Origin: an uncultured beta proteobacterium | Lineage (GTDB): Bacteria > Pseudomonadota > Gammaproteobacteria > Burkholderiales > SHXO01 | Length of the DNA stretch: 64,000 bases | Assembly: GCA_963827575.1 (NCBI GenBank) | Contig: CAWHCG010000048.1 | Coordinates: forward strand, 197,018-261,017 | Direction of reading: 5' to 3' | Shown: piece by piece, positions 16,049 through 47,834 of the stretch | Numbering within the stretch: the stretch's first letter is position 1 | Layout of the letters: every line of letters starts with the position of its first letter | Position numbers and translations under genes: made by a program | The notes under the pieces: generated by a model | Database searches by the model: none | What the model saw: only the letters and a program-made list of their open reading frames with translations | Told to the model about the DNA's origin: nothing

Positions 16049-16202
16049 TTGAACCGCAGAGGCGCGGAGGCGCAGAGGTAGGAACTTAGAGGATGAAGGA
16101 TGGCAACCCCGGGTCTTCCCCGCTGGTCGATTGGGAGAAGGCGCACGACCGTATCAATGCTCTGGGTTGATTCCTCTGCGCCTCTGCGCCTCTGCGGTTC
16201 AA
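16049..16202. repeat. composite hairpin element (GCAGAGGCG units), paaK-paaA gap
   Basis: Left arm ttgaACCGCagaggcgcggaggcgcagaggtaggaac. Right arm gttgattcctctgcgcctctgcgcctctGCGGTtcaa. Spacer ~80 nt. Confidence 0.85.
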
Positions 16203-16225
16203 AATTGTCGAGGGGGTAGGAAACG

Positions 16226-17239
16226 ATGTACACACAAGCGATTGACCTGCCGAACCAGCAGCCAGACGAGCAGAAGCCGGGCCCGAAGACGCTCGAGAAT
16301 CCCGACTACCAAGCCGAGTTCGACGCCAGGCTGGCGCGCGGCGAGTTCATCGAGCCGAAGGACTGGATGCCGGAGGCGTACCGCAAGACCCTGGTCCGGC
16401 AGATCTCCCAGCACGCCCACTCCGAGATCGTGGGGATGCTGCCGGAAGGAAACTGGATCACTCGCGCGCCGACCCTCAAGCGCAAGGCCATTCTGCTCGC
16501 CAAGGTGCAAGACGAAGGCGGTCACGGCTTGTACTTGTACGCGGCCGCCGAGACCCTCGGGGTGTCGCGGGACGCGCTGATCGAGGCCTTGCACACCGGC
16601 AAGGCCAAGTATTCGTCCATCTTCAACTACCCTGCGCTCACCTGGGCCGACATCGGCGTGATCGGCTGGCTGGTGGACGGTGCGGCGATCATGAACCAGA
16701 TCCCGCTCACGCGCTGCTCGTATGGCCCCTATGCGCGCGCCATGATCCGTGTCTGCAAGGAAGAGAGCTTCCACCAGCGCCAGGGCTTCGACCTGCTGCT
16801 GACCATGATGCGCGGCAGCCAGGCGCAGCGCGCCATGGTGCAGGACGCAGTCGACCGCTGGTGGTGGCCGGCGCTGATGATGTTCGGTCCGCACGACCAG
16901 GACTCCCTGCACGGGACGCAGAGCAGCCAATGGGGCATCAAGCGCATATCCAACGACGACTTGCGCCAGAAGTTCGTCGACGCGACCGCGCCGCAGGCCC
17001 AGGTGCTCGGCGTCACCCTGCCCGATCCGCATTTGAAGTGGAGCGAGGCGCGCGGGCACTGGGACTTCGGCGAGATCGACTGGTCCGAGTTCTGGGCGGT
17101 GGTGAACGGCCATGGCCCGTGCAACCGTGAGCGCCTGGCCGAGCGGGTGAAGGCCCACGAGGACGGCGCCTGGGTGCGCGAGGCGGCCCTCGCTTACGCG
17201 GCCAAGCAGGCGGCGCGTACCGAGGTACTTGATGTCTAG
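16226..17239 (+). CDS. paaA: 1,2-phenylacetyl-CoA epoxidase subunit A
   Basis: [43 protein letters not shown], di-iron ligand motifs typical of PaaA. 337 aa. Confidence 0.9.
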
Positions 17240-17247
17240 CGGAACAC

Positions 17248-17415
17248 GCTCTCACCGCCAAGGACGCAAAGGACGCCAGAGGAAACACCGATCTTGAATA
17301 CCCAGCGCCGAGGTAGCTCGCCTGGACGACCGGCCAATTGCGTCATCAGCCATTGGACGAACGCAGTCCGCTCCCTGGCTTTCCTTGGCGTCCTTTGCGT
17401 CCTTGGCGGTGAGAG
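17248..17415. repeat. composite hairpin element (CCAAGGACG units), paaA-paaB gap
   Basis: Left arm gctctcACCGCcaaggacgcaaaggacgccagaggaaac. Right arm ctttccttggcgtcctttgcgtccttgGCGGTgagag. The arms are near-perfect complements and the spacer is ~92 nt. Confidence 0.9.
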
Positions 17416-17451
17416 GTCTGGTTTGGTTGATCGAGATCCGGGGAGCAGCTG

Positions 17452-17739
17452 ATGGATAGGAAAGAATGGCCGCTGTGGGAAGTGTTCATCCGCAGCAAGA
17501 GCGGTCTGGACCACAAGCACTGCGGCAGCCTGCACGCGCCCGACGCGAAGCTGGCGCTGCAGAACGCCCGCGACATCTACACGCGCCGGCTGGAAGGCGT
17601 GAGCATCTGGGTGGTGCGCGCGGATCACATCCACGCCTCCGACCCGGACGCCAAGCCCGAGCTGTTCGATCCGGCGGAGGACAAGATCTACCGGCATCCG
17701 ACCTTCTACAAGCTGCCGGATGAAGTGGATCACATGTGA
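17452..17739 (+). CDS. paaB: 1,2-phenylacetyl-CoA epoxidase subunit B
   Basis: 95 aa, WPLWEVFIRSKSGLDHKHCGSLHAPD..ARDIYTRR..IWVV, the typical PaaB pattern. Confidence 0.9.
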   Translation: MDRKEWPLWEVFIRSKSGLDHKHCGSLHAPDAKLALQNARDIYTRRLEGVSIWVVRADHIHASDPDAKPELFDPAEDKIYRHPTFYKLPDEVDHM

Positions 17740-17788
17740 GGGGTGAGGGGCTAGGGGCTGGGGAACTACGTTACTCTGGGCAATCGCG

Positions 17789-18542
17789 ATGTCAACGACT
17801 CACTTCGACTACGTTATCCGTCTTGCGGACAGCCCGCTGATCCTCGGCCAGCGCTTGTCCGAATGGTGCGGGCACGGCCCGGTCCTGGAAGAGGATCTCG
17901 CGCTGGCCAATGTCGCGCTCGATCTGATCGGCCAGGCCCGGCTGCTGCTCGCCCATGCCGGCGGGCTCGAGGGCAGAGGGCACGACGAGGATCAGCTCGC
18001 CTTCCTGCGCGCGGAGTCCAGACTATCGCAACTTCACGTTGGTGGAACTGCCCAACGGCGACTTCGGCACGACGGTGGTACGCAACCTCCTGTTCAGCGC
18101 CTACCAGTCGCATTTGTGGGAAGACCTGCAACGGTCCGCCGACCACGCGCTTGCGGCGATCGCGGGCAAGAGCATCAAGGAGGTGCGGTACCATCTGCGC
18201 CACGCGGCCGACTGGACGATACGCCTTGGCGATGGTACCGAGGAGTCGCACGCGCGCGTACAATCCGCGCTCGATCAACTATGGCCGTACACCGCCGAGT
18301 TCTTCGCGCCCGATGCGGTGGACCAGGCGGCGGCAGCCGACGGCTACGGCGTGGCGGTCGCGCCCCTTCAACCGCGCTGGGACGCAACGGTGGGGCCGGT
18401 CCTGGAGGAGGCGACGCTGCGTGTCCCGGAGCGCACGCCGTTTCGCTCCCATGGCAAGCATGGTGTGCACAGCGAGCACATGGGGCATCTCCTGACCGAG
18501 ATGCAGTATATGCAGCGCACCTATCCAGCTTCGCAATGGTGA
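17789..18542 (+). pseudogene. paaC: 1,2-phenylacetyl-CoA epoxidase subunit C, one frame break
   Basis: ORF 17789 gives YVIRLADSPLILGQRLSEWCGHGPVLEEDLALANVALDLIGQAR..LAFLRAE. The frame of ORF 17955 continues (P)DYRNFTLVELPNGDF..VRYHLRHAADW. A 1-nt insertion lies at ~18017-18021. Confidence 0.8.
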
Positions 18543-18549
18543 GGCAGCG

Positions 18550-19035
18550 GTGCTGACGCCGGCGGAGGCCTGGGATGCACTGCGTGCGGTGCCAGACCCG
18601 GAGATCCCGGTAATCTCGGTATGCGAGCTCGGAATCGTCCGCGAGGTGCGCGCCGACGGCGACGCGCTTACCGTCGTAGTCACACCTACCTACTCGGGTT
18701 GCCCGGCGACCGAAATGATCGCGACGTCCATTTGCGACGCGTTGCGGCAAGCCGGTGCGCGGCGCGTGGAGATCGAGACCCGGCTGTCGCCTGCCTGGAC
18801 CACGGACTGGATCGCGCCCGAGGCGGCCGAGAAGCTGCGGGCCTACGGCATCGTGCCCCCGGGCGCGGCGCCGCCAGATGGACCGCGCCCGCTGCGGTTC
18901 GTCCCGCGCCTCGTCTGCCCGCGCTGCACCTCGCGGCACACCGAACGGCTGTCGGAGTTCGGCTCCACCGCGTGCAAGGCGATGTATCGGTGCCTCGACT
19001 GCCGCGAGCCTTTCGAGTATTTCAAGCCGATCTGA
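18550..19035 (+). CDS. paaD: phenylacetate degradation protein PaaD (PaaJ in alternative nomenclature)
   Basis: VPDPEIPVISVCELGIVREV..TPTYSGCPA and a C-terminal CPRC..CLDC zinc-ribbon-like pair. GTG start. Confidence 0.85.
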   Translation: MLTPAEAWDALRAVPDPEIPVISVCELGIVREVRADGDALTVVVTPTYSGCPATEMIATSICDALRQAGARRVEIETRLSPAWTTDWIAPEAAEKLRAYGIVPPGAAPPDGPRPLRFVPRLVCPRCTSRHTERLSEFGSTACKAMYRCLDCREPFEYFKPI

Positions 19036-19044
19036 GACCAACCG

Positions 19045-19236
19045 CATTCACCGCAGAGGACGCAGAGGAATGCACAGACGAAAATGATCTGTCCCTGCAA
19101 GCAGCGAATTGCGAGCACGCTGAGCGGAGCCGCAGCAAAGAGAGCACCGCTAAGCCCGGCTCCCCCCGGACGAACGCTTGGTTCTGTCGCGCATTCCTCT
19201 GCGTTCCTCCGCGTCCTCTGTGCGTCCTCTGCGGTT
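19045..19236. repeat. composite hairpin element (GCAGAGGAC units), paaD-paaE gap
   Basis: Left arm gcattcACCGCagaggacgcagaggaatgc. Right arm gcattcctctgcgttcctccgcgtcctctgtgcgtcctctGCGGTt. Spacer ~116 nt. Confidence 0.85.
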
Positions 19237-19250
19237 ATCGAGTTTGAGAC

Positions 19251-20318
19251 GTGACACCAAGATTTCACACCTTGCGCATAGCCGAAGTGCGCCGCGAGAC
19301 CCCCGAAGCGGTGAGCCTGCGCTTCGAGGTGCCACGCGAGCTGGCGCCGGACTATGCTTTCACCCAAGGCCAGCACATCACGTTGCGCGCACGCCTCGAC
19401 GGCGAGGAGCTGCGGCGTTCCTATTCGATCTGCGCCGGGGTCGACGACGCGGAGCTGCGGGTGGCGATCAAGAAGGTGCCGGGCGGCATGTTCTCCACTT
19501 ACGCGAACACGAGCCTCAAGCGCGGGGACGCCATCGACGTGCTCACGCCGGAGGGGCGATTTCACACTGCACTCGACGCTGCCAGCCGCAAACACTACGT
19601 AGCCTTCGCAGCCGGCAGCGGCATCACCCCGGTGCTCTCGCTCATCAAGACCACCCTCAAGCGCGAACCACGCAGCCGTTTCACGCTGCTGTACGGCAAC
19701 CGCCGCGTGTCGACCGCGATGTTCCAGGAAGAGCTGGAGGACTTGAAGGATCGCTATCTCGACCGGCTGATCCTCTATAACCTGTTCAGTCGCGAGCATC
19801 AGGAAGTGGAGCTGTTCAACGGCCGCCTCGACGGCGGCAAATTGAAGGCCTTCGCCGGCGCGCTGCTGCCGGTGGATACGATCGACGAAGCCTTCGTCTG
19901 CGGTCCCGGCGCCATGCTCGACGAGCTCGAGCGTGCGCTGCGCGAGCTGGGCATGCCCCCCGAGCACATCCATCTGGAGCGGTTCGGGGTGCCCGGCAGC
20001 GAGACGGCGCATCACGTGGAGCCTGGAGATGCGGCGCAGGCGCACGTCACCATCATCCTCGACGGCGGCCGCCGGGAGGTCGAGTTCCATCGGGACGATG
20101 CCTCGCTTCTGGAGGCTGCGCTGCGCGACGGTCTCGATCTGCCCTACTCGTGCAAGGGCGGCATGTGCTGCACCTGCCGGGCCAGAGTCCTGGAAGGCAA
20201 AGTGCGTATGGACAAGAACTACAGCCTGGAGCAGCGCGACCTCGACGCCGGCTTCGTGCTGGCGTGCCAGGCGCATCCGCTCACCGACCGCGTCGTTCTC
20301 AGCTACGACGAGCGCTAG
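19251..20318 (+). CDS. paaE: 1,2-phenylacetyl-CoA epoxidase reductase subunit (FNR-like + plant-type 2Fe-2S)
   Basis: FHTLRIAEVRRET..RSYSIC (FAD-binding RxYS), GSGITP (NAD binding), C-terminal CKGGMCCTCRARVLEG..LACQA 2Fe-2S motif. Confidence 0.85.
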   Translation: MTPRFHTLRIAEVRRETPEAVSLRFEVPRELAPDYAFTQGQHITLRARLDGEELRRSYSICAGVDDAELRVAIKKVPGGMFSTYANTSLKRGDAIDVLTPEGRFHTALDAASRKHYVAFAAGSGITPVLSLIKTTLKREPRSRFTLLYGNRRVSTAMFQEELEDLKDRYLDRLILYNLFSREHQEVELFNGRLDGGKLKAFAGALLPVDTIDEAFVCGPGAMLDELERALRELGMPPEHIHLERFGVPGSETAHHVEPGDAAQAHVTIILDGGRREVEFHRDDASLLEAALRDGLDLPYSCKGGMCCTCRARVLEGKVRMDKNYSLEQRDLDAGFVLACQAHPLTDRVVLSYDER

Positions 20319-20322
20319 AGAA

Positions 20323-20476
20323 GCGCTCACCGCCAAGGACGCAAAGGACGCCAAGGAAGACGACAGACATGCGTGACCTCGAATCCCACCGCTTGTGTCT
20401 ACCAAGTGGTCCGTTCCACTGCCGCAGACGTTTTTCGTTCTTCCTTGGCGCCCTTGGCGTCCTTGGCGGTGAAAGG
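20323..20476. repeat. composite hairpin element (CCAAGGACG units), paaE-TetR gap
   Basis: Left arm gcgctcACCGCcaaggacgcaaaggacgccaaggaagac. Right arm gttcttccttggcgcccttggcgtccttgGCGGTgaaagg. Spacer ~75 nt. Confidence 0.9.
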
Positions 20477-20494
20477 TTTCGGCAGTAAATAGCC

Positions 20495-21109
20495 ATGGCT
20501 AGAACCAGAGCACCGACGTTCGACCAGCAGCGCGCCAGCATCCTGCAGGCGGCGGCCAGCCTGTTCGCGCAGCGCGGCTTCGAGGGCGCATCCATGGCCG
20601 AACTGGCCCGCGCGTGCGGGGTCTCCAAGGGCCTGCTGTACCATTACTACCGCGACAAGCAGCACATCCTGTTCGACATCGCCGACAGCTACATGGACCG
20701 GCTGCTGGCCAGTGCTGCGCAGGTGCGCAGCCGCAAGCTGCCGGCCGAGGAGAACCTGCGCGCGCTGATCGCCCGCTTCATGCGGGAGTACCAGCATTCC
20801 CAGCCGCAGCACATGGTGCTGGTGCAGGACGTGAAATTCCTGGCAGACTTGCAGCGCGCCCAGGTGCTCGGCAAGGAGCGCGAGGTGGTCGACGCCTTCG
20901 CGCAGGCGATTGCCGCGCTCAAGCCACGCCTGCGCAAGAAGGCGCTGCGGGTGCCGCTGGCGATGATCCTGTTCGGGATGATCAACTGGACCTTCACCTG
21001 GCTGCGGCCCGAGGGGCCGCTGTCCTACGAGGACATGGCGCAGGTGGTAGCGGAGATCTTTCTACGCGGAGTCGTCGATACCGCGGCAGCGCAACAGCGT
21101 GCCGCATGA
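20495..21109 (+). CDS. TetR/AcrR family regulator (PaaR-like by position)
   Basis: ILQAAASLFAQRGFEGASMAELARACGVSKGLLYHYYRDKQHIL is a TetR HTH. The PaaR role is inferred only from its location directly after paaE. Confidence 0.75.
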   Translation: MARTRAPTFDQQRASILQAAASLFAQRGFEGASMAELARACGVSKGLLYHYYRDKQHILFDIADSYMDRLLASAAQVRSRKLPAEENLRALIARFMREYQHSQPQHMVLVQDVKFLADLQRAQVLGKEREVVDAFAQAIAALKPRLRKKALRVPLAMILFGMINWTFTWLRPEGPLSYEDMAQVVAEIFLRGVVDTAAAQQRAA

Positions 21110-21140
21110 GCAGGCGACGCACTGGACCGGAGGGAAGCAC

Positions 21141-22133
21141 GTGAAACTCGCCACACTGAACACCGGCGGGCGCGACGGCAGGCTGATCATCGTCAGCCGC
21201 GACCTCAAGCGCGCCGTCGCCGCCTCGGAGGTGGCCCCGAGCCTGCAGGCCGTCCTCGACGACTGGCATGGCAAGGCGTCGAAGCTGGCACAGCTGTCTG
21301 CCGCGCTCAACAGCGGGCGCGCCGCCGACGCCTTCGACTTCGACCCCAACCGCTGTGCGTCGCCCCTGCCGCGCGCCTACCAGTGGGCCGACGGTTCGGC
21401 CTACGTCAATCACGTCGAGCTGGTGCGCAAGGCGCGCGGCGCGCAGATGCCACCCTCGTTCTGGACCGACCCGCTGATGTATCAGGGCGGATCGGACAGC
21501 TTCCTGGGCCCCTGCGACCCGATCCTCGCGCAGAGCGAAGATTGGGGGATCGACCTGGAGGCCGAGGTCGCGGTGATCACCGAAGACGTACCCATGGGCC
21601 TGGAGCCGGACAAAGCCGCGCAGCGCATCCGCCTGGTGATGCTGGTCAACGACGTGAGCCTGCGCAACCTGATCCCCAACGAGCTGGGCAAGGGCTTCGG
21701 ATTCTTCCAGAGCAAGCCGTCCAGCGCGTTCTCTCCGGTAGCCGTCACACCCGACGAGCTGGGCGAAGCCTGGAACGGAAAAAAGCTGAGCCTGCCCGTC
21801 ATCGTCCACATCAACGGCAGTCAGTTCGGCGAGCCCAACGCCGGCGACGACATGACTTTCGATTTTGCGCAGCTGATCGCCCACGCGGCGAAGACGCGCC
21901 CGCTGGCGGCGGGCACCATCATCGGCTCGGGCACCATTTCCAACCTCGACCGCAGCCGCGGCGCAGCCTGCATTGCCGAGAAGCGGATGCTGGAGACCAT
22001 CGACAGCGGCAAGCCGGTCACACCGTTTCTACGCTTCGGCGACCGCGTGCGCATCGAGATGCGCGATGCCGACGGCAACTCGATCTTCGGGGCGATCGAT
22101 CAGGAGGTGCAGCGGTATACGCCGCCCGCTTGA
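21141..22133 (+). CDS. fumarylacetoacetate hydrolase (FAH) family protein
   Basis: A GTG preceded by GGAGGGA. VKLATLNTGGRDGRLIIVSRD..YQWADGSAYVNHVELVRKARGA..EAEVAVIT..GTIIGSGTISN..GDRVRIEM, the FAH-fold pattern. Confidence 0.8.
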   Translation: MKLATLNTGGRDGRLIIVSRDLKRAVAASEVAPSLQAVLDDWHGKASKLAQLSAALNSGRAADAFDFDPNRCASPLPRAYQWADGSAYVNHVELVRKARGAQMPPSFWTDPLMYQGGSDSFLGPCDPILAQSEDWGIDLEAEVAVITEDVPMGLEPDKAAQRIRLVMLVNDVSLRNLIPNELGKGFGFFQSKPSSAFSPVAVTPDELGEAWNGKKLSLPVIVHINGSQFGEPNAGDDMTFDFAQLIAHAAKTRPLAAGTIIGSGTISNLDRSRGAACIAEKRMLETIDSGKPVTPFLRFGDRVRIEMRDADGNSIFGAIDQEVQRYTPPA

Positions 22134-22136
22134 CAG

Positions 22137-22372
22137 CAGGCGCGAGGCACGAGGCTCGAGGCGCGAGAGGTGCGGCCTTGACAGCGCATTCGGAAGGGCC
22201 GCCGAGTGCCCCCTCTCCCCTTGCGGGAGAGGGCTGGGTGAGGGGCCGACACATCGGAACCGCTACCAGCAGGCTCGAGATCGGCCCCGCGCGTCGCCAT
22301 CGCGCGCGCACGTCGCGCCTCGCGCCTCGCGCCTCGCGCTTGCTCGCGCCTCGCGCCTCGCGCCTCGCGCCT
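22137..22372. repeat. composite hairpin element, heptamer class (AGGCGCG / CCTCGCG) with REP-like core
   Basis: Left arm caggcgcgaggcacgaggctcgaggcgcgagagg (22137-22172). Core CCCTCTCCC cttgc GGGAGAGGG (22211-22233). The right arm has ~8 CCTCGCG units (22311-22372). It fills the convergent gap to within 3-4 nt of both stop codons. Confidence 0.85.
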
Positions 22373-22375
22373 GGG

Positions 22376-23263
22376 TCACCCGGCGTTGCCTCCTCGAACC
22401 GAAGTGGATTCTCGCCCGTCGCGCTCGCCCGCCATGCTGCGAAACTCTTGGGCGTAGCGCCGCATCCGCTCTACTGCCGTTGCGCGCTGGCGGGGGGTCA
22501 GGCTGCGGTCGAGGTCTACCATCATGTCGGTAAAGCTGGCTTCCCAGGCGACCATGGTTTCGCGGTATCGCTCGGTGTGACCTGCGTCCGGATCGGTGAG
22601 AAGGGCAGCCAGCCGCATCTGCGCCTGAGGGTCGTCCGGATGATCCCGCAGCACGATGAGCAACTGCGTCTGACGGTGCTTGCGATCCACCAGTCGCAGT
22701 GCCGGCACATTTGGGAAGGCGCGCACGAACTTCATCACGCGTTCGCGCTGGGCCGCATTCGTATCCCCGGTCCAGTCCTCCAGCCGGGCACAGATCCAGT
22801 CAGCGCGCACGCGCACTGCCTCCTCTGGATCCTTTGATAGCTTGTTGACGTACTTGCGGTTGTCCGCTGCGAAGCGCGCTTCCAGACCCTCGAGCTGCCG
22901 GTCGTTCAGAGTCAGGAGCAACGGCGCCAGGCGATCGGCCGCGTGGCGTCCCAGCACCTGGTAGCGCAAGCGCACGGCCCCGACCACCCAGACCACGTCG
23001 TCCCGCTTCAGTCCCCGATCGAGGCGTGCCGCAGCCTCATCCAGCAGCGCAGCGTAGCGGGGCAGCTCCTCGCGCCGATGCCAGGCGTGGAACTGGCCGA
23101 GCTGCGCCTTGAGGGCCCGCGCCTGGTCACGATCCATGTCCACGTAGCCGCTCGCCATGCGCGCGAGAGCCCAGTCGGCGTTATCGTAGGACAGGCGCAC
23201 CGCGCTGCAGGAAGCCAGCAACGCAAGCAGCAAAATGAACAAAGCAACGGGACGGGCGCGCAT
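22376..23263 (-). CDS. lipoprotein, DUF6279-like
   Basis: From ATG 23263: MRARPVALFILLLALLASCSAVRLSYDNADWAL.. (lipobox LLASC), ..FHAWHRREELPRY.. 295 aa. The 630-aa track ORF is an upstream read-through artefact. Confidence 0.6.
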   Translation of the reverse strand: MRARPVALFILLLALLASCSAVRLSYDNADWALARMASGYVDMDRDQARALKAQLGQFHAWHRREELPRYAALLDEAAARLDRGLKRDDVVWVVGAVRLRYQVLGRHAADRLAPLLLTLNDRQLEGLEARFAADNRKYVNKLSKDPEEAVRVRADWICARLEDWTGDTNAAQRERVMKFVRAFPNVPALRLVDRKHRQTQLLIVLRDHPDDPQAQMRLAALLTDPDAGHTERYRETMVAWEASFTDMMVDLDRSLTPRQRATAVERMRRYAQEFRSMAGERDGRESTSVRGGNAG

Positions 23264-23348
23264 GGGCACGTGTTTTAAGGAACGGGCGGTGGTTCTGCCT
23301 ATAATTCTAGCTTGCGTTCGACTGGCGCGAAACCACCTAGGAGACGCT

Positions 23349-32050: not shown

Positions 32051-32249
32051 AAGGCGGGAGGCGCCTGCCCGTGAGGCGGTGAGGCGGGAGGCGAGGCGTC
32101 CCCCAACACTGCTGGTGAGGCGGGAGGCGGGAGGCGGGAGGCGTCCCCCTCACCCCGCCTCTCTGAACGGGGAGAGGGAGGATGCGGGTTATCTATCACC
32201 TAGAACGCCTCACTCGCTCACGCCTCACGCCTCTACGCCTCACGCGCCT
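32051..32249. repeat. composite hairpin element, heptamer class (AGGCGGG/AGGCGTG vs CCTCACG) with REP-like core
   Basis: Two left blocks (32051-32104, 32115-32149) of ggcggga/gtgaggc units. Core ccccctcaccccgcctctctgaacggggagagggagg (~32145-32181). Right arm gcctcactcgctcacgcctcacgcctctacgcctcacgcgcct (32207-32249), abutting the SBP stop. Confidence 0.85.
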
Positions 32250-33440
32250 ACTTCATCGCCTCCACCGGCCGCTTCTTCCTCACCACGCATCCGCTCGGCA
32301 TGTAGTCCTTGCCGTCGGCGTAGCGCCAGTCCACCATGACGCCCTTGTTGCCCTTCAGGTCGAGCTTGCCGACAAAGGCCCAACGTGGATTGCTGGTCGA
32401 TTGCGCGAAAGGTGATGGGGCCGAACACGGTGTCGATCGTCAGGCCGCGCAAGGCCTTGATCAGCTTCTCGGGGTCGGTGGAGCCCGCTTTCCTGAGGGC
32501 CTCGGCGATCGCCATGAAGGTGGTGTAGCCCACCACCGAACCCAGACGCGGTGTGTCGTTGAAGCGTTTCTCGTAGGCCTGCACGAACTTCTGGTGCACC
32601 GGGGTCTTGATCTGTTCCCAGGGATAGCCGGTGACGATCCAGCCCACCGGGGTTTCGTCCTTGAGCGGGTCGAGGTACTCCGGCTCGCCCGACAGCATGC
32701 TGACCACCGCGCGATCCTCGAACAAGCCGCGCAAGTTGCCCTCGCGCACGAACTTGGTCAAGTCGGCGCCGAACGTGACATTGAAGATCGCATCGGGCCT
32801 GGCCGCGGCCAGCGCCTGCACCGTCGCACCCGCCTCCAGCTTGCCCAGCGCCGGCCACTGCTCCTCGACGAACTCGACGTCCGGCCGCTTCGCCTTCAGC
32901 AGGGCCTTGAAGCTCGCCACCGCCGATTGTCCGTACTCGTAGTTGGGCGCCACCGTCGCCCAGCGTTTGGCCGGGAGCTTGGCCGCCTCCTCCGCCAGCA
33001 TGGCCGACTGCATATAGGTGCTCGGACGCAGCCGGAAGGTGTAGCGGTTGCCCTTCTCCCACACCAGCGCATCGGTGAGCGGCTCGGCCGCGACGAACAC
33101 GACCTTGTTGCGCAGGGCGATGTCGCTGACCGCAAGCCCGACGTTGGACAGAAAGGTCCCGGCGAGCAGGTCGACCTTCTGGCTCGCGAGCAGCTCGCTG
33201 GCATGCCGGGTCGCATCGTCCGGCTTGCCGCCGTCATCGCGCGAGATCACTTCCAGCCTGCGCCCCAGCACCCCGCCCGCGGCGTTCACCTCCTCCACCG
33301 CCAGCTCCCAGCCGTTGCGGTAGGGGATCGTGAACGCAGGCACGGTGGAGTAGCTGCTGATCTCGCCGATGCGGATCGGGCTGCTGCGCATGCGCGGCTG
33401 TGAGATCAGCACCAGCGCGCCGAGTGCAATCGCTCGTCAT
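32248..33440 (-). pseudogene. Liv-type (PBP type 1) ABC substrate-binding protein, frame broken near both ends
   Basis: The body is in ORF 32240..33412 (PIRIGEISSYSTVPAF..NGWELAVEEVNAAGGVLGRRLEV..). The C-terminus continues after a 1-nt shift at ~32377-32382 as AFVGKLDLKGNKGVMVDWRYADGKDYMP..VEAMK* (TAG 32248). The likely ATG 33440 (MTS..) is also one frame off the IALGALVLI signal segment. Confidence 0.7.
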
Positions 33441-33465: not shown

Positions 33466-33631
33466 CACCGCCAAGGACGCCAAGAACGCAAAGGAAAACC
33501 AGAGTCTGTTTCGACAAGCGCTAACACCCTTGCGCCATTGACGACGCTGGTGTCAAGGCGCGTCGCGGATCGCCTTTTCAGCGCATCCCTGCTTCTCGGT
33601 TCTCTTGGCGTCCTTGGCGTCCTTGGCGGTG
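33466..33631. repeat. composite hairpin element (CCAAGGACG units), SBP-ligase gap
   Basis: Left arm cACCGCcaaggacgccaagaacgcaaaggaaaacc. Right arm ggttctcttggcgtccttggcgtccttgGCGGTg. Spacer ~97 nt. Confidence 0.9.
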
Positions 33632-35956: not shown

Positions 35957-36060
35957 TCAACCGCAGAGGCGCAGAGAACACCTGTTTGCTGGTGACGCCG
36001 GGGCCAGTGTTCGTGCCATATGCATTTTCCTCTGCGAGCCTCTGCGCCTGTGCGGTTGGA
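35957..36060. repeat. composite hairpin element (GCAGAGGCG units), short copy
   Basis: Left arm tcaACCGCagaggcgcagagaacac. Right arm ttttcctctgcgagcctctgcgcctgtGCGGTtgga. Spacer ~43 nt. It lies between the two amino-acid-synthesis-family paralogs. Confidence 0.85.
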
Positions 36061-37561: not shown

Positions 37562-37857
37562 CCGTGAGGCGGGAGGCGGGAGGCGGGAGGCGTCCGATCG
37601 CGTGAGGGGAGGCGGGAGGCGGGAGGCGTCCCCCGATACTGCTGCGTGAGCGGGAGGCGGGAGGGGGAGGGTCCCCTCACCCCTGCCCTCTCCCCCGTGA
37701 ACGGGGGAGAGGGAGTATGCTGTTGGGCTGCTTCAGTAACGGATTGACGCCTCACGCCTCACGCACTCGAACGCCTCACGCCTCACGCCTCACGCCTCAC
37801 GCCTCACGCCTCACGCCTCACGCCTCACGCCTCACGCCTCACGCCTCACGCCTCACG
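37562..37857. repeat. composite hairpin element, largest copy: AGGCGGG blocks, REP-like core, GCCTCAC x12 array
   Basis: Left blocks 37562-37670. Core CCCTCTCCCCC gtgaac GGGGGAGAGGG (37686-37713, 11-bp perfect stem). Right arm GCCTCAC x2 (37749-37763) and an uninterrupted x12 run (37773-37857), ending 3 nt from the stop at 37861. Confidence 0.9.
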
Positions 37858-39344: not shown

Positions 39345-39562
39345 GAACCGCCAAAGCAACACAGAGGAAACTTGAACGGTCCTCCAGCGAAAATCTGAAT
39401 GGGCCGCCAAGACGCCAAGACGCCAAGGAAACCAATACAGACTCTCTCGCAACCATACGCACAGGGAACCCCGAAGGAGATGCAGGGCTGTTCTTGGCGT
39501 CTTGGCGTCTTGGCGGCCATTCAGGTTTTCCCTCGTGTCTTGGCGTATGGGTTCTTGGCGGC
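39345..39562. repeat. nested/double composite hairpin element (CCAAGACG octamer units)
   Basis: Outer left gaACCGCcaaagcaacacagaggaaac (39345-39371). Inner left ctgaatgggCCGCcaagacgccaagacgccaaggaaacc (39395-39433). Inner right gttcttggcgtcttggcgtcttgGCGGccattcag (39490-39524). Outer right gttttccctcgtgtcttggcgtatgggttcttGGCGGc (39525-39562). Confidence 0.85.
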
Positions 39563-42366: not shown

Positions 42367-43201
42367 CGGCCAGCCCTCGCAGAGCACGCTGGATCAGCCG
42401 TTCGGCCGCCTCCGTCCGGTAGGCGGCGGTGCCCCGCACGTCGTCGATCGGACTCAACCCCGCGAGATCGTTCGAGTGCACGAGGCCCGCGGCCTGAGCC
42501 AGCGGCCGCCCGACGAGCCGCGCCTCCAGTGCCGGGAGGCGCTGCGCCACCGGCGAGCACGCGCCCACCGCAACCGCCGCCTCCACCACTGTCCCCCTTT
42601 CGTCCACATCCAGGGCAACGGCGGCCATCAGGATTGAGATCACCAGGTAGCGGCGCGCGCCCAGCTTGAGAAAGGTCGAGCGCGCCCGCGCGCTGCGCTC
42701 GGGGATCAGGAAGGCCGTGACCAGCTCGTCGGACTGGCGCGCAGTCTGCCGCCCGCCGGTGATGAAGCCGGCCAGCGGCACGCGGCGCCGCCCGCGCGCG
42801 CTCGCCAGCTCTACCTGCCCGCCCAGCGCGAGCAGGCAAGGCACGCCGTCGGCCGCCGGCGAAGCGTTGCAGACGTTGCCACCCAGGGTACCGGCGTTCT
42901 GGATCTGCATGCCGCCGACCTCGCGGGCCGCCAGCTTGAGCGCATCGAACAGGGCGGGCAGCGGCTCTGCCAGGATGTCGGACCAGGTGGTGAGCGCACC
43001 GATGCGCCAGATGCCGTCCTCGCGGCCGATGCCGCGCAGGACGGCGACACGGGTGATGTCGAGGACATCTTCGCGCAGCGGCCGCCCGACGCGCGCAGGA
43101 TAGAAATCCGTACCCCCGGCGAGCACGGAGAGCGCGCGCCCGGACAGCGCCGCCAGAGCCTCCTCCAACCCGGCCGGTTGCAGATACAGCGGTTGTTGCA
43201 C
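42359..43201 (-). CDS. FAD-binding subunit of molybdopterin hydroxylase (CoxM/XdhB-like)
   Basis: LAGGTDFYPA..IGALTTWSD..QIQNAGTLGGNVCNASPAADG..DVRGTAAYR. The start is taken at GTG 43201, 13 nt after GAGGAG. The track ORF extends to 43258. Confidence 0.8.
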   Translation of the reverse strand: MQQPLYLQPAGLEEALAALSGRALSVLAGGTDFYPARVGRPLREDVLDITRVAVLRGIGREDGIWRIGALTTWSDILAEPLPALFDALKLAAREVGGMQIQNAGTLGGNVCNASPAADGVPCLLALGGQVELASARGRRRVPLAGFITGGRQTARQSDELVTAFLIPERSARARSTFLKLGARRYLVISILMAAVALDVDERGTVVEAAVAVGACSPVAQRLPALEARLVGRPLAQAAGLVHSNDLAGLSPIDDVRGTAAYRTEAAERLIQRALRGLAGE

Positions 43202-43411
43202 AGCCTTGCCTTGCTCCTCGATTGGCGGCGGCTCGATCCGCGGCGGCCCGACGGCCACCGCGCCGGCGGGTGTGGAGTGGCTGCTACAAAGTTTTAAGAA
43301 CCCGCTTTATTCCCGCCCGCGTGGCAACATATCCTACGGGGCGGCAACTTTCAACCCTGCCCCGGCTTCGGTTACTATCGCAGCTCGCAACTTCCGCGCC
43401 CGGGGAACGCC

Positions 43412-43735
43412 ATGACCCACGTCGTCACCGAATCCTGCATCAAGTGCAAGTACACCGACTGCGTGGACGTGTGCCCGGTGGACTGCTTCCGCGAGGGACC
43501 GAACATGCTGGTGATCGACCCCGACGAGTGCATCGACTGCGCAGTCTGCATCCCCGAGTGCCCGGTCAATGCCATCTACGCGGACGTGGACCTGCCCCAG
43601 AAGCAGCTGCACTTCACCGATCTGAACGCGGAGCTCTCCAAGACCCTCCCGTCGATCACCGGCAAAAAGGAAGCCCCGCCGGATGCCGACGCCTGGAAGG
43701 ACGTGACGGACAAGCTGCAGTACCTGGAACGCTGA
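43412..43735 (+). CDS. fdxA: 7Fe ferredoxin (Azotobacter FdxA type)
   Basis: [55 protein letters not shown], the canonical 3Fe-4S + 4Fe-4S Cys pattern. 107 aa. Confidence 0.9.
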
Positions 43736-43751
43736 GGCGCCGGCGGCGCTC

Positions 43752-44438
43752 ATGGCCGTAGCCGCAGCGCCCGCGCGCTCAGCCGCACGCAAGCCCCGCG
43801 CCGCCGCGGTCGTGAAGCGCGACCCGGCCGGCATGCAGCGCCGCATCCTGGATGCGGCCCGGGCGGAGTTCGCGGGCCACGGCTTCGGCGGCGCACGGGT
43901 CGAGCGGATCAGCCGCCGCGCCCGCACCGTGGACCGGATGCTGTACTACTACTTCGGCAGCAAGGACGGGCTGTTCCGTGCCGTGCTCGAGGACAGCTAC
44001 GAGAAGCTCGGCCGCGCCGAGCAGCAGCTCGAGCTCTCGGGGGTCGATGCGGTGGAGGGGATGCGCCAGCTCATCGCCTTCACCTGGGACTACTATCTGA
44101 TGCACCCGGAGTTCATCCGCCTGCTCAACAGCGAGAACCTGTACCGGGGCGAGCACGTGAAGAAGTCCCGCCGGGTGAAGGCGCTGTCCTTCCCGCTGCT
44201 GTCGGTCCTGACCGGCCTGCTCGAGCGGGGTGCGCAGCAGTGCCGCTTCCGCCGCGGCATCGATCCGGTGGAGATCTACATCACGATCGCGGCCCTGGGC
44301 TACTTCTACCTCTCCAATCGCTACACGCTGACGCGCTTTCTCGGTGTCGATCTGATGGCAAAAGCGCGCCGGGAGCGCTGGCTCGAACATATCACCAGCG
44401 TGGTGCTGGACCACATCGCTCTGCCCTCCACAGCTTGA
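43752..44438 (+). CDS. TetR/AcrR family transcriptional regulator
   Basis: ILDAARAEFAGHGFGGARVERISRRARTVDRMLYYYFGSKDGLF, a TetR HTH. Confidence 0.8.
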   Translation: MAVAAAPARSAARKPRAAAVVKRDPAGMQRRILDAARAEFAGHGFGGARVERISRRARTVDRMLYYYFGSKDGLFRAVLEDSYEKLGRAEQQLELSGVDAVEGMRQLIAFTWDYYLMHPEFIRLLNSENLYRGEHVKKSRRVKALSFPLLSVLTGLLERGAQQCRFRRGIDPVEIYITIAALGYFYLSNRYTLTRFLGVDLMAKARRERWLEHITSVVLDHIALPSTA

Positions 44439-44467
44439 CCCACGGAGGACGGAGGAAACAAACTCCG

Positions 44468-45655
44468 ATGAACGCCGCCTGCATTGAGGACCTGCGCGAG
44501 GCCGCGCGCCGCCGCCTGCCCAAGGCCGTGTTCGACTTCGTCGATGGCGGCGCCCAGGATGAGGTCACCCTGCGGGCCAACCGCGCCGACTTCGCCCGCT
44601 TGACGTTCATGCCCCGGGTCCTCACCGACGTCTCCAACCGCAGCCTCGAGACCACGCTGCTGGGCCGGCGCATTGCGCTGCCGCTGGTGGTAGCGCCCAC
44701 CGGGCTGGCCGGGCTGCTAGCGCGCCGCGGCGAGACAGCCGAGGTGCGCGCTGCGGACCGGGCGGGAATTCCCTATTGCCTGAGCCAGATGGCCGCCACC
44801 AGCATCGAGGAGATCGAGCGCGCGGCCCTGCAGCCGTTCTGGTTCCAGACCTATCTGCTCAAGGACCGCGGCGTCAACGAGTCGCTGCTGCAGCGTGCGG
44901 CACGGGCCGGGTGCGAGGTGCTGGTCGTCGCCGTGGACACCAAGGGGCAGGGCCTGCGCGAGCGCGATATTCGCAATGGCTTCACCGTGCCCCCGCGCGT
45001 GACCTGGCGCAATGCGCTCGACCTGGCGCGCCGACCGGGCTGGCTGTGGGACGTGGGACTGGGCCCGCGGGTCACCTTCGCCAACCTGGCCGGCAGCCTG
45101 GTGGGCAGCAGCGACATCATCAGCATCGCCCGCTTCGCCCAGGAGCAGTACGATTTCAGCGTCGACTGGTCCCAGATCGACTGGTGCCGGGCACGCTGGC
45201 AGGGCAAGCTCGTCCTCAAAGGAATCCTCACCCCCGACGACGCCCGCCTTGCGGTCGAGCACGGGGTCGACGCGCTGATCGTCTCCAATCACGGCGGCCG
45301 GCAACTCGATGGCGCCCCCTCCACGATCGCCGTGCTGCCCCTCATCACCGCTACGGTACGGGGCCGTGCGGAGGTGATCCTGGACGGCGGCGTGCGGCGC
45401 GGTACCGATATTCTCAAGGCGCTCGCGCTGGGCGCGCGTGCCTGCATGGCCGGCCGCCCGTTTCTGTACGGGCTCGCCGCCGCCGGCGAGCAGGGCGTGG
45501 CACGCGCCATCGAGATCTTCCGCAACGAGCTGGATGTGGCGCTGGCGCTGCTCGGACGCCCGAGCGTCGCGGATCTGGATGAGACTGTGCTTGCTAGCGC
45601 GCTTCAACCGACGACAGGCCCAAGGCCAACCGCGAACGACGCAAAGTCCCTGTGA
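44468..45655 (+). CDS. FMN-dependent alpha-hydroxy acid dehydrogenase/oxidase (LldD/glycolate oxidase family)
   Basis: DLREAARRRLPKAVFDFVDGGAQDE..APTGLAGL..FQTY..VVAVDT..LKGILTPDDA..VSNHGGRQLDG..DGGVRRGTDILKALALGA. Confidence 0.85.
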   Translation: MNAACIEDLREAARRRLPKAVFDFVDGGAQDEVTLRANRADFARLTFMPRVLTDVSNRSLETTLLGRRIALPLVVAPTGLAGLLARRGETAEVRAADRAGIPYCLSQMAATSIEEIERAALQPFWFQTYLLKDRGVNESLLQRAARAGCEVLVVAVDTKGQGLRERDIRNGFTVPPRVTWRNALDLARRPGWLWDVGLGPRVTFANLAGSLVGSSDIISIARFAQEQYDFSVDWSQIDWCRARWQGKLVLKGILTPDDARLAVEHGVDALIVSNHGGRQLDGAPSTIAVLPLITATVRGRAEVILDGGVRRGTDILKALALGARACMAGRPFLYGLAAAGEQGVARAIEIFRNELDVALALLGRPSVADLDETVLASALQPTTGPRPTANDAKSL

Positions 45656-45745
45656 AGGCGGATCCGTGACGTGATCGGAACCTTACCGAAGCCGCCACGC
45701 TGGGCGGCGCGCGCGACTCTGCAGGCCATCGGGGTCCACGCGGAC

Positions 45746-46432
45746 CTATCGGCGTTTTAGCTGGTCAAAGCGACGAGCAAAACTGTCGATGAGTGACTCC
45801 ATAACGGGTTTGAACTGAGATTCAAAGTCCTCGTCTGTGACCAAGCCCAGCCTTTCGGATTGCCAGCCACTCGCCTTGCATTCCAAGTGGTGCCCTCGGA
45901 GTGCAGTCTTGATGCCACCGCCCTTTGCTTCGCCCGCGATCCAGCTGTAGCATCGGAATACCACGCCTCGAAGGGTTTCTCCCGTCTCCTTGGCCTGTTT
46001 CCGTCGCCACTCCGCGAATGAAGGAGGCTCTTCGCTTTGGCTTCCAAACACCGGGAAGTCCGGTAGCTTCCCGAGCTGCAGCTTAGTCCACTCTTTCAGT
46101 CGGTCGAGCACTTCCTCGCTGTAAGCATCCTTGCCCTCAGGCCACTGCGCGTGCAAGCCTATGTGGTTAATGTAACGAACAGCGCAGAGCTCCTTGTTTT
46201 CTGCAAACTGAAGCTCTAGTTCAAAGTCGCTATCGGACGGCTTATCCAGCCGCTGTCCTTCCTGTCGTTGGTACCACTTGTGGACTCTTGCTGTCACTGT
46301 CTCCAGGTCCCGCAAGCATTCCTTCTCCGTCTTGTAAGTATCGGCGCCGGCATGGGCCGGTAGAAGAAGCGCTATCCCGAGGAAAAGCGGCGATCGGCGC
46401 AGGAGCGCCGACCACGTTACAGGTATGAACAT
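45746..46432 (-). CDS. hypothetical secreted protein in a lower-GC islet
   Basis: From ATG 46432: MFIPVTWSALLRRSPLFLGIALLLPAHAGA (signal peptide), then a charged 200-aa body with no motif I recognise. Codon usage and GC are visibly lower than in the neighbours. Confidence 0.5.
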   Translation of the reverse strand: MFIPVTWSALLRRSPLFLGIALLLPAHAGADTYKTEKECLRDLETVTARVHKWYQRQEGQRLDKPSDSDFELELQFAENKELCAVRYINHIGLHAQWPEGKDAYSEEVLDRLKEWTKLQLGKLPDFPVFGSQSEEPPSFAEWRRKQAKETGETLRGVVFRCYSWIAGEAKGGGIKTALRGHHLECKASGWQSERLGLVTDEDFESQFKPVMESLIDSFARRFDQLKRR

Positions 46433-46799
46433 ATGGCGTGCGTTTGAACGATTGAATGATAGTCCAACCCGTGCCACGCCGGTAGTCAGGATCGCTCAGT
46501 GTCGGATTTCGACGACTTCCGCCGTGCTGCTCACGTTCCGGCAGGCTCGTCGACCGGCCTTGATCGGCGGCCATGCCGCCGGCAGACGACATCGCCACCA
46601 CCGCGAACTTCTTCAACTGCCCGAAGAACGAGCAACTTCTCCCGAAAGAGCTCGGCGCAAGCGGCGGATTTGCTCTGTGCACGGCGAACGCTCTCGTCGA
46701 ATCGCCGCTTATCCGAGGTCACGTCGCGTCCACTCCGACGTCGCGTCCACCGACCAGTCTCTCACTCATGGCTCCATGCGTCATGCGTAGAATAGCCGC

Positions 46800-47579
46800 A
46801 TGAATCCTCCGCTCGACGCCGCAACCGCGGCCATCTCGCTCGACAACGTCGACAAGGTCTACCCCAGCGGCGTGCGCGCGTTGGAGCGCATCGACCTCGA
46901 TGTACGCAGCGGAGAGTTCCTCACGCTGCTCGGTCCCTCGGGTTGCGGCAAGAGCACTCTGCTGCGCCTCCTTGCGGGGCTGACGCCACCCACCACCGGG
47001 CAAGTGCGGCGGTACGAACCGCAGGACCGGCCCGTCGCCTTCGTGTTCCAGCAGCCGACGCTGATGCCCTGGGCGAGCGTCACCACCAACGTGCGCCTGC
47101 CGCTCGACCTCGCCGGCGCAGACCGGGTGCCGGCGGACGCGCGTGTGCACGACGCCCTGGCGCTGGTGAGGTTGCACGGCTTCGAGCATGCCTATCCGCG
47201 CGAGCTTTCCGGAGGGATGCAGATGCGCACTTCCATCGCCCGGGCCCTGGTGACGGACCCGGGACTGCTGCTGATGGACGAGCCCTTCGGGGCGCTGGAC
47301 GAGATCACCCGCGTGCGCCTGGACCGCGAGATCCGCGATCTGTGGGCCCGCCAGCAGCTCACCGTCGTGTTCGTGACCCACAGCATCTACGAGGCGGTGT
47401 TCCTGTCCTCCCGGGTGCTGGTGCTGTCGGCCCGCCCGGGACGCATCCTGGGCGAGGTGCAGATCGATGAGCCGCATCCGCGCACCGAGGCTTTCAGGGT
47501 GAGCGAGCGCTTTGCGCGCTGGTGCCTGCGGCTGTCCGAGCTGCTCGCGGCCGGCAGCGCCGAGCCGACCCCTGCATGA
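46800..47579 (+). CDS. ABC transporter ATP-binding protein (nitrate/sulfonate/taurine NitT family)
   Basis: LLGPSGCGKSTLLR, LSGGMQMRTSIARAL, LLLMDEPFGALD. Confidence 0.85.
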   Translation: MNPPLDAATAAISLDNVDKVYPSGVRALERIDLDVRSGEFLTLLGPSGCGKSTLLRLLAGLTPPTTGQVRRYEPQDRPVAFVFQQPTLMPWASVTTNVRLPLDLAGADRVPADARVHDALALVRLHGFEHAYPRELSGGMQMRTSIARALVTDPGLLLMDEPFGALDEITRVRLDREIRDLWARQQLTVVFVTHSIYEAVFLSSRVLVLSARPGRILGEVQIDEPHPRTEAFRVSERFARWCLRLSELLAAGSAEPTPA

Positions 47580-47652
47580 GCGGCCAAGGAAAGCGCCTTG
47601 AGCCCAGAGCAACTCAGCCAGTGGCCCGGCAAGCAGCCTTGGACAGAAAACC

Positions 47653-47834
47653 ACAACCAAAGGCGCCAAGGCACAGAGACGCCAAGGAGTCATACACGAG
47701 CACCCACAGCGTTGGCGCAGCCTTGTCCTTGGGCTGCCAGCGATGGCTAGCCGGCCCCTGCTGAGCCACCTTTGCGCCTTTGCGTCTTTGCGGCTTTGCG
47801 ATCCTCGCCGGCTCTCTGTGTCCTCTGTGGCTGC
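47653..47834. repeat. degenerate composite hairpin element (CAAAGGCGC units), ATPase-permease gap
   Basis: Left arm acaACCaaaggcgccaaggcacagagacgccaaggag. The right arm is cctttgcgcctttgcgtctttgcggctttgcg plus ctctctgtgtcctctgtgg. The arms match less well than in other copies. Confidence 0.65.

Follow-up and report, generated by a model that had tools for sequence, protein, structure and literature searches.

Tandem-arm foldback repeats of purine-first polarity in the spacers of an uncultured betaproteobacterium and in other phyla

Twelve complete inverted repeats whose arms are built of short units repeated head to tail are found in a 64,000-nucleotide stretch of the genome of an uncultured beta proteobacterium (Burkholderiales, SHXO01; assembly GCA_963827575.1, contig CAWHCG010000048.1, positions 197,018 to 261,017), hereafter the window. 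In all 12 of these tandem-arm foldback elements the purine-rich arm lies 5' and the CCT-rich arm 3'. This arrangement had been proposed from inspection of the DNA letters (the sequence-only reading) for 13 complete copies; all copies do fall into one class, and the count is approximately right, the complete copies numbering 12, ten within 16049-47834, the range considered by that reading, and two outside it (4672-4763 and 9030-9315). The observation is real and broader than the earlier reader knew, and the class is very widespread and, it appears, not previously described. Since a uniform polarity is expected by descent in any inverted-repeat family, the 12 out of 12 result needs no ribosomal explanation. 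We judge it somewhat probable that the elements are copies of a non-autonomous foldback intergenic repeat, of the kind represented by hairpin-forming doublets of repetitive extragenic palindromic (REP) sequences, or REPINs, and by MITEs (miniature inverted-repeat transposable elements).

Anatomy, polarity and folding of the window elements

An inverted-repeat scan requiring arms of at least 20 nt, complementarity of at least 85% and a gap of at most 350 nt returned 13 repeats in the window, whose G+C content is 67%, against 0-2 in each of 20 first-order Markov surrogates; 10 of the 13 were clearly purine-first and none pyrimidine-first. Arms and their 7-9-nt periods were taken from a repeat finder and Tandem Repeats Finder, and our own inverted-repeat scan added two copies. 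Elements fill about 12 of the roughly 20 longer spacers, and a scan of every window spacer of at least 60 nt disclosed no further copy beyond those of Table 1, which also lists partial and degenerate ones.

Each element consists, in this order, of a foot, a tandem array, a variable interior of 15-250 nt and the exact complement of array and foot. The arrays are head-to-tail series of 7-9-nt units, mostly of the form C-G-C-N-R-A-G-G-(A). The units encountered in the window are CGCAGAGG(A); CGCCAAGGA and CGCAAAGGA; GCGAGGC; GTGAGGCG and GGGAGGC; CGCCAAGA; CACGAAGGA; and ACAGGATT, and every one except ACAGGATT is a variant of C-R-C-N-R-A-G-G-(A). For six unit types of the window, the exact complement is present in the partner arm. 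The stem extends beyond the arrays into the short foot, (TTGA/TCTC)ACC(G/A)C, and the foot motif ACCRC was found in 49 of 92 elements from all sources, compared with 6.8% of random 24-nt windows. The number of units is often unequal between the two arms, as at 22135 (5' arm about 4, 3' arm about 12) and at 37563 (about 14 and about 15). The 5' arms of the elements at 17249 and 20327 are identical over their first 26 nt (CACCGCCAAGGACGCAAAGGACGCCA) and enclose unrelated interiors. The purine fraction of the interiors falls from 0.59 to 0.54 and 0.43 over successive thirds, and in 46 of 56 elements the first third is richer in purines than the last.

As the sequence-only reading correctly stated, an inverted repeat of the form X..X' reads the same on both strands, and the order of its arms defines a class. 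In all 12 elements purines make up 0.53-0.76 of the 5' arm, compared with 0.48-0.50 in three unrelated inverted repeats of the window. The 4-mers GGAG, GAGG and AGGA, which form Shine-Dalgarno (SD)-like cores, occur 1-8 times in the first 45 nt of the elements, with 0.59 expected from their density in the window, and are missing from the last 45 nt of 11 of the 12; the complementary 4-mers are distributed as a mirror image. These counts support the proposal that the first arm carries SD-like cores and the second their complement, one element (39402, unit CGCCAAGA) being nearly core-less. A different family of the window, the small hairpin CCCTCTCCC-loop-GGGAGAGGG, is C-first in five copies out of five, three of which sit within or beside large elements. 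This family is just as invariant but of opposite polarity, and it thus serves as an in-window control for a polarity fixed by descent.

Read along the direction of transcription, 11 of the 12 window elements have their 5' end at most about 10 nt from the stop codon upstream, which is the more constant feature of their placement. Four window elements are inside the paaK-paaA-paaB-paaD-paaE-tetR gene string, and those at 9030 and 22135 have convergent partners. Among 47 elements of any source whose two neighbours could be called, these neighbours were co-directional in 26 cases, convergent in 16 and divergent in 5. The array had been described as ending 10-35 nt ahead of the next start codon; this describes the four plus-strand paa spacers reasonably well (23, 36, 4-14 and 22 nt) and fails elsewhere, where the distance is 24-160 nt and, at 35958-36058, the start of the next gene overlaps the element.

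The elements fold into stems of 20-45 bp. As RNA, their minimum free energy (MFE) ranges from -53 to -193 kcal/mol (z about -3.5 to -10.5), and computation finds them highly stable as DNA too. The GGA and AGG cores are base-paired in both the MFE and the centroid structures. Mismatches in the sense-strand stems comprise 17 G.U and 12 A.C pairs; this excess of G.U is not significant and gives no sign of an RNA-specific tolerance of wobble pairs. In the spacers inspected, no U-tract was found 3' of the stems, which are followed by AAATTGTCG, AAAGGTTTC, GTCTGGTTT and the like. Rfam covariance models gave no match at the gathering threshold, the sub-threshold matches being just plant microRNA-precursor hairpins (E 0.006-2.5).

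These properties bear on the functional view attached to the sequence-only reading, in which SD-like or GGA-type sites of the 5' arm would capture a terminating ribosome, a 30S subunit or a CsrA-like protein, with a built-in antagonist in the 3' arm, both tuning the coupling or the stability of the next cistron. We regard it as very unlikely. The SD 4-mers are 2- to 14-fold enriched in the 5' arms and absent from the 3' arms, and most families (CAGGATT, CAAGGAC, CAGAGGC and GGGAGGC) again contain RGGA or GAGG cores, but in the computed structures these cores are paired within very stable stems that show no excess of G.U, and families whose units have no SD core (CGCCAAGA in the window; CACGACGA, GGGAATC and ACTGGGG elsewhere) keep the same architecture and the same polarity. 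The CAGGATT unit resembles the CAGGA(U/C/A)G repeats of CsrB. With the 5' arm beginning 1-10 nt past the stop codon, ribosomes that terminate there would melt the stem at its foot; elements are nevertheless also encountered in convergent spacers and in Bacteroidota and cyanobacteria, which make little use of SD sequences or are not known to have CsrA. Where visible in the short spacers inspected, the SD-like stretch of the downstream gene stands apart from the element: a purine-rich stretch of this kind lies outside the element upstream of paaA, of paaB and of the gene starting at 35981, and none is visible in the paaE and TetR spacers. Ribosome standby or decoy sites sequestered by an anti-SD array are thus disfavoured by the core-less units, the pairing of the cores and the G.U count. 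Overall, the sequence-only reading is partly supported: its geometry, the single class and the census agree with it, its ribosome-centred part is disfavoured, and the likeness to SD and anti-SD sequences arises mostly from the RAGG core of the unit. Two other roles listed by the sequence-only reading, a footprint of the copying mechanism and segmental stabilisation of messenger RNA (mRNA), stay viable.

Occurrence and polarity in other genomes

A scan of one genome per species with two units of the 3' arm (TCCTTGGCGTCCTTGGCG) recovered, among the matches listed, paired elements with the same arm module of about 30 nt in Sporomusa, Pirellulales, Lacipirellula, other Planctomycetota, Sorangium, Chloroflexia, Anaerolineae, Thermoanaerobaculia and Gamma-, Beta- and Deltaproteobacteria; in Lentisphaeria the arms are present solely as a junction, where the 3' end of one element stands beside the 5' start of another. 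Paired tandem-arm foldbacks in general were seen in Pseudomonadota, Planctomycetota, Myxococcota, Bacillota, Chloroflexota, Acidobacteriota and Gemmatimonadota, arrays also in still other phyla, and the ACAGGATT family of 9030-9315 is also found in other phyla. Some of these copies are minimal, with loops of about 12-22 nt, and others enclose nested tandem-arm hairpins made of different units. The CAGGATT x3 pattern also matches contigs of the archaeon Candidatus Methanoperedens (L470 and L478), a match of the pattern alone.

Polarity was counted in three families of units, pairs in which both arms match the pattern being counted twice, so that distinct elements are somewhat fewer than the following figures. 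For CGCCAAGGA, the partner arm lies on the purine-first side in 26 of the matches listed and on the opposite side in 4; most of the exceptions inspected (L002, L012, L093, L119) are junctions. The GGGAATC sample, drawn from genera other than Xanthomonas, contains 128 arrays, 16 with a partner downstream (purine-first), none with a partner upstream and 112 solo; its low-GC, mostly cyanobacterial loci hold no pairs. CAGGATT provided 155 arrays: 45 with a downstream (purine-first) and 4 with an upstream partner, 16 in tandem series and 90 solo. This last pattern, counted irrespective of pairing, was matched in many more phyla. A Nostoc pair, ACTGGGG / CCCCAGT, displays the same polarity as the window elements.

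The sequence-only reading would have been contradicted by similar frequencies of the two polarity classes, and these are far from similar. In 2.44 Mb of DNA collected from unrelated genomes, tandem-arm inverted repeats are purine-first in 76 cases, compositionally neutral in 24 and nominally pyrimidine-first in 11. The latter comprise 4 junctions, 3 instances of GC-rich coding noise, 3 weakly skewed repeats and 1 phage repeat (GCCCCAAGT; at a guess, it may be an operator array), about four being genuinely pyrimidine-first. The CGCCAAGGA, GGGAATC and CAGGATT units are unrelated in sequence, yet they may share ancestry. A purine-first rule common to unrelated units implies that an additional directional constraint exists.

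Solo arrays between co-directional genes hint at such a constraint: the G-rich strand of GGGAATC arrays is the sense strand in 10 cases against 2, and the bias is 11 against 5 when all families are pooled, figures that we take as suggestive. One constraint of this kind would be selection on the transcript. In an untranslated spacer, a pyrimidine- or C-rich arm emerging first could act as a loading (rut-like) site for the terminator Rho, single-stranded until its partner is transcribed, and make the element polar, whereas a purine- or G-rich first arm would offer no such site and a C-rich second arm would pair on emergence; purine-first copies alone would then survive in or after operons, whatever the direction of transcription. 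Such selection would readily span unrelated unit families and would suit elements lying in transcribed positions right after stop codons and rarely in divergent spacers (5/47), as well as 3' arms that are long, C-rich and G-poor, such as (ACGCCTC)x15 at 37747-37857. We nonetheless consider it unlikely. Many 3' arms are not G-poor (TCCTTGGCG has three G), the sense-strand bias that looks strong for solo GGGAATC arrays becomes weak in the pooled set, and the small hairpins of the same transcripts are C-first. The few paired and strongly skewed arrays of Nostoc are G-first as well, and cyanobacteria are not known to have Rho.

The constraint might instead reside in the way arms are made. Purine- or G-rich units added or copied 5' to 3' onto the 3' ends on both sides of a break, or onto a fold-back-primed end, would generate arrays that face each other, with the G-rich one leading on either strand; in a variant of this scheme, G-rich arrays on both 3'-ending strands would favour recombinational repair after cleavage of the hairpin tip. 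Convergent-only pairing in three families agrees with this scheme, as do the 70-75 convergent GGGAATC pairs reported in Xanthomonas (Rehm et al. 2015, PMC4692102). Arrays also arise without a partner (112 of 128 GGGAATC and 90 of 155 CAGGATT arrays are solo), unit numbers are unequal, unrelated interiors stand behind identical arms and the purine-to-pyrimidine gradient carries on into the interior, all of which would follow from arms made in this way. We nevertheless find it distinctly unlikely, as the conserved non-repeat foot outside the arrays agrees more closely with a defined mobile end than with de novo addition at any chance break, interiors are common to paralogues, and the diversity of units in one genome would demand many templates. 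No responsible enzyme was found here, and we know of no bacterial enzyme adding such units onto 3' ends.

Copying, slippage and decay of a foldback repeat

The preferred explanation, a foldback repeat copied as a unit, draws on paralogues found in a single genome. One deltaproteobacterial metagenome-assembled genome (MAG) contains three copies whose interiors are about 82% identical; one copy is inverted, its arm polarity being unchanged, and two of the three differ by exactly one 9-nt unit. The shared interior and the one-unit indel are direct evidence that whole elements are copied and that slippage proceeds by units. In the window's own lineage an expansion must have taken place, since window-type elements are essentially absent from 880 kb of paa loci drawn from 80 other Burkholderiales, some of which carry other repeats in the same spacers; it is Burkholderiales genes that the window genes themselves resemble most (PaaA up to 83% identical among the matches listed). 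The exact 26-nt 5' arm common to two window elements is present in 39 metagenome contigs, nearly always with the 3' arm downstream. The interiors of these copies have no detectable mutual similarity, apart from repeat sampling of the same loci. Phages rarely carry paired copies, 49 matches in viral contigs including just 2-3 that are paired.

The elements probably form a foldback family with slippage-prone arms, co-transcribed and either tolerated or mildly useful as a stable RNA stem. Copies multiply within a genome together with their interior, as the MAG paralogues show, and arrays grow and shrink by slippage in whole units, as shown by the one-unit indel and the unequal arms. Interiors decay while the arms remain complementary, which selection or arm-to-arm templated repair may bring about. 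The orientation of the unit relative to the foot would be part of the identity of the element, and flipping the whole would change nothing, hence a purine- and AGG-first order everywhere. Persistence 3' of stop codons and inside operons may be owed to the missing U-tract and to a stem of 20-45 bp joining both ends. Once transcribed, this stem would most plausibly block 3' to 5' exonucleases or serve as an RNase III site, and so stabilise or process mRNA segments; a role as ribosome site would be unlikely.

Several points weigh against this explanation. The three CGCCAAGGA copies of the window have unrelated interiors despite matching arms, which is unusual for a recently active MITE and requires either great age combined with a constraint on the arms or copying of the arms only. 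Among 30 window open reading frames (ORFs) scanned with Pfam, mainly those flanking elements, there is no transposase, integrase or reverse transcriptase, and no gene for a REP-associated tyrosine transposase (RAYT); the scanned genes are housekeeping, catabolic or signalling ones. A tblastn search over about 3.3 Mb of loci, using an approximate RAYT query, gave one weak and unrelated match. In about 2.4 Mb, no arm pairs 0.4-6 kb apart were seen to flank an ORF, which is a weak negative, and no consistent direct repeat indicative of a target-site duplication flanks the window copies or the 39 metagenome copies. Arms that stay nearly identical from phylum to phylum sit badly with neutral descent, and descent alone does not account for a polarity common to the GGGAATC, CAGGATT and CRC-type families.

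These last two difficulties lead to a broader proposal, tentative and rather less than probable, that prokaryotic tandem-arm foldbacks are a cross-phylum class whose near-universal chirality goes beyond descent alone and points to directional synthesis or copying, or to a universal constraint on transcribed hairpins. Synthesis templated at a 3' end or primed by fold-back, Rho loading, and contact with the ribosome or anti-SD might, at the same tentative level, be its causes. If general, the purine-first rule would provide a testable handle on how such hairpins arise or get filtered, would flag the elements as frequent unannotated occupants of operon spacers, and would call for caution where SD-like arrays in spacers can derive from repeats rather than from translational signals.

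Other arrangements of the elements were observed in passing. Two metagenome copies (L221:2577-2704 and L227:372-499) have in common about 70% of the interior, together with stretches outside the arms of about 13 nt (upstream) and about 35 nt (downstream), the remaining flanks being unalignable; this likeness suggests that the copied unit is able to reach beyond the arms. In two deltaproteobacterial MAGs (L419:1-600 and L481:1-700), CAGGATT-type elements form regular tandem series of at least five copies, with periods of about 112 nt and about 187 nt, respectively, which indicates that element and spacer can be amplified head to tail. In junction forms (L093:6750-6820; L119:57-132 and 4610-4685; L455 about 6640-6700, minus strand) an element's 3' end and a 5' start stand 2-20 nt apart, as in ...GGCGGTT AGTTCCTCTTCA TTGAACCGCC..., and the outer partners are missing in some of them. 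Such forms may have arisen from insertions side by side, or may be what is left of a circular or tandem intermediate.

Relation to known repeats and inventory of the window

Searches of open-literature full text and of Rfam did not find the arm module, nor a class of tandem-arm foldbacks with a conserved foot and a fixed chirality; the exact arm and foot strings retrieved nothing relevant, and keywords retrieved Rehm et al. (2015) and general REP/REPIN papers. The one precedent among these is a passing mention, in Rehm et al. (2015), of GGGAATC pairs that converge in Xanthomonas. That study (PLoS One, PMC4692102) described 70-75 GGGAATC pairs in convergent orientation, one site per strand, in two Xanthomonas genomes, at a mean of 28 nt from the upstream ORF and 160 nt from the downstream one; it handled them as simple sequence repeats rather than as a foldback family and left their polarity without explanation. 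Like the window elements, these pairs are tandem 7-nt units of variable number, intergenic, close to the upstream ORF and with the G-rich arm first; they are transcribed, as the window elements probably are. The window units are instead CRC-N-RAGG or ACAGGATT, with GG rather than GGG runs, and the G-quadruplex interpretation is therefore not transferable: units of 10 of the 12 window elements contain GG alone, G3 runs exist just in the GGGAGGC arrays (32067, 37563), and four G3 tracts per arm are not attained. The conserved foot of the window elements also sets them apart from the Xanthomonas pairs as described.

REP and REPIN sequences (Bertels and Rainey 2011, PMC3116915; Di Nocera et al. 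2013, PMC3733652) are similar in being abundant intergenic hairpin doublets with a fixed arrangement within a family, located after genes and inside operons, co-transcribed and replicating as a unit. The inverted doublet of fixed arrangement forming one long hairpin, which defines REPINs, is found in the window elements. REP/REPIN arms, however, are imperfect self-palindromes of 20-40 nt, whereas the window arms repeat a unit head to tail, as in (CGCCAAGGA)n, and lack self-complementarity. The GTAG or CGTC tag that belongs to the definition of REPs (PMC3733652) is replaced in the window by the terminal motif (TTGA/TCTC)ACCRC, and REP sequences are lineage-specific, in contrast to an arm sequence common to several phyla. 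Bacterial MITEs such as Correia, ERIC, RUP and Nezha are likewise short, non-coding, multi-copy elements with terminal inverted repeats, sometimes nested and tolerated in transcribed spacers. The window elements differ by termini of array type and variable length, without an identified target-site duplication or parent insertion sequence; the shared interior expected of a MITE was seen in one MAG (the three copies at about 82%) and not in the three CGCCAAGGA window copies.

Eukaryotic Foldback (FB) transposons have long inverted arms made of short tandem subrepeats, unequal arms and a variable or absent centre; they are kilobase-sized and some encode a transposase. They may be the closest analogues of the window elements in structure, a likeness of architecture without evidence of homology. 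The heptamer STRR repeats of cyanobacteria are tandem heptamers of intergenic DNA, polymorphic in unit number and mostly solo. The variable-number tandem-repeat (VNTR) loci used for multiple-locus VNTR analysis (MLVA) typing of Xanthomonas are similarly intergenic tandem heptamers with unit-number polymorphism and are mostly solo, unlike the window elements.

Five other identities were considered and rejected. Intrinsic terminators share the GC-rich stem after a stop codon and the enrichment in convergent spacers, and are ruled out by the lack of a U-tract, by interiors of 15-250 nt and by the four intra-operon copies. The integron attC site is a misfit, since the termini TTGAACC...GGTTCAA do not agree with the core RYYYAAC...GTTRRRY and the flanks are housekeeping operons, an integrase having been sought in the scanned ORFs alone. 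GGA motifs that are paired rather than exposed do not suit a sponge RNA of the CsrB/RsmZ type. Mimicry of 16S helix 45 by the foot of the stem is contradicted by mismatches to the betaproteobacterial helix (AGCCG...). The 3' end GGTTCAA is similar to a tRNA T-arm, with no complementary CCGCC behind it.

The coordinates of the elements, of their partial copies and of the small hairpins are collected in Table 1. Besides paaK, paaA, paaB, paaC, paaD, paaE and the TetR regulator gene, the elements are flanked by a fumarylacetoacetase-family gene, a branched-chain transport cluster, an AMP-ligase gene and genes for molybdopterin dehydrogenase subunits.

Table 1. Tandem-arm foldback elements, partial copies and small hairpins of the window (MFE of RNA in kcal/mol, with z-score)
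Position	Strand	Feature	Units and foot	Placement and remarks
4672-4763		foldback element	AGGCGCG (5') / CTCGCGC (3')	abuts stop codon of minus-strand MazG-like gene; MFE -66.7, z -5.8
9030-9315		foldback element, separate ACAGGATT family	arms 9030-9074 / 9291-9315	small C-first hairpin in interior
14641-14690		3' arm alone (partial copy)	TCCTTGGCG units, the last ones running into GGCGGTGAGAG	without 5' partner
16049-16202		foldback element	CGCAGAGG; foot TTGAACCGC...GCGGTTCAA	4 nt past paaK stop codon; ends 23 nt ahead of paaA ATG; MFE -97.4, z -10
17249-17415		foldback element	CGCCAAGGA; foot CTCTCACCGCC	paaA-paaB spacer; outer arms 30/30 complementary
17736-17770	+	solo G-rich array (partial)	GTGAGGG GTGAGGG GCTAGGG GCTGGGG	overlaps paaB stop codon; without partner arm
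19039-19246		foldback element	CGCAGAGGA	paaD-paaE spacer
20327-20472		foldback element	CGCCAAGGA	paaE-TetR spacer; RNA -85.6, z -10.5; DNA -48, z -8.8
22135-22373		foldback element	GCGAGGC	fills convergent spacer; small hairpin nested
22211-22233		small hairpin	CCCTCTCCC-loop-GGGAGAGGG	nested in 22135-22373
32067-32251		foldback element	GTGAGGCG / GGGAGGC	compound 5' arm; overlaps stop codon of periplasmic-binding-protein gene
33466-33631		foldback element	CGCCAAGGA	
35958-36058		foldback element	CGCAGAGG; foot CAACCGC	separates two AA_synth genes
37563-37857		largest foldback element	GAGGCGG arrays (~14 units, three blocks) opposite (ACGCCTC)x15	small hairpin nested; MFE -193, z -9.5
37686-37713		small hairpin	CCCTCTCCC-loop-GGGAGAGGG	nested in 37563-37857
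39402-39518		foldback element	CGCCAAGA	arms 26/26 complementary; no SD core in unit
47650-47840		degenerate copy	CCAAGG-type 5' units and (CCTTTGCG)x4 3' array	3' array reaches into start of next gene
55410-55490	+	5'-type arrays only (partial)	CCGCAGAGGA..., CACGAAGGA x3	without complementary arm
55555-55577		small hairpin	CCCTCTCCC-loop-GGGAGAGGG	
55648-55670		small hairpin	CCCTCTCCC-loop-GGGAGAGGG	
56426-56448		small hairpin	CCCTCTCCC-loop-GGGAGAGGG	

A run such as GGGTGAGGGG often comes after the small CCCTCTCCC-loop-GGGAGAGGG hairpin. Similar small hairpins are located at about 9203-9228 and 32150-32190, and another is present in the paaD-paaE spacer of a relative (L121). A different kind of repeat occupies 50600-50810, where a 310-nt spacer contains two similar hairpins, CGCCACCCCGCC(T/C)CGT(A/G)AGA(A)GGCG(A/G)GG, as a direct repeat about 140 nt apart and without tandem arms. 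The gene for phenylacetate-CoA ligase, paaK (14733-16044), appears frameshifted: the first 110 codons or so are in the frame of 14733, which has no Pfam match, and the remainder is in the frame of 15073-16044, the switch lying near 15050-15075. This is either a pseudogene or a sequencing error. The ACAGGATT element adjoins a gene encoding a WYL-WCX domain regulator (9792-10823, minus strand), which is probably unrelated to it.

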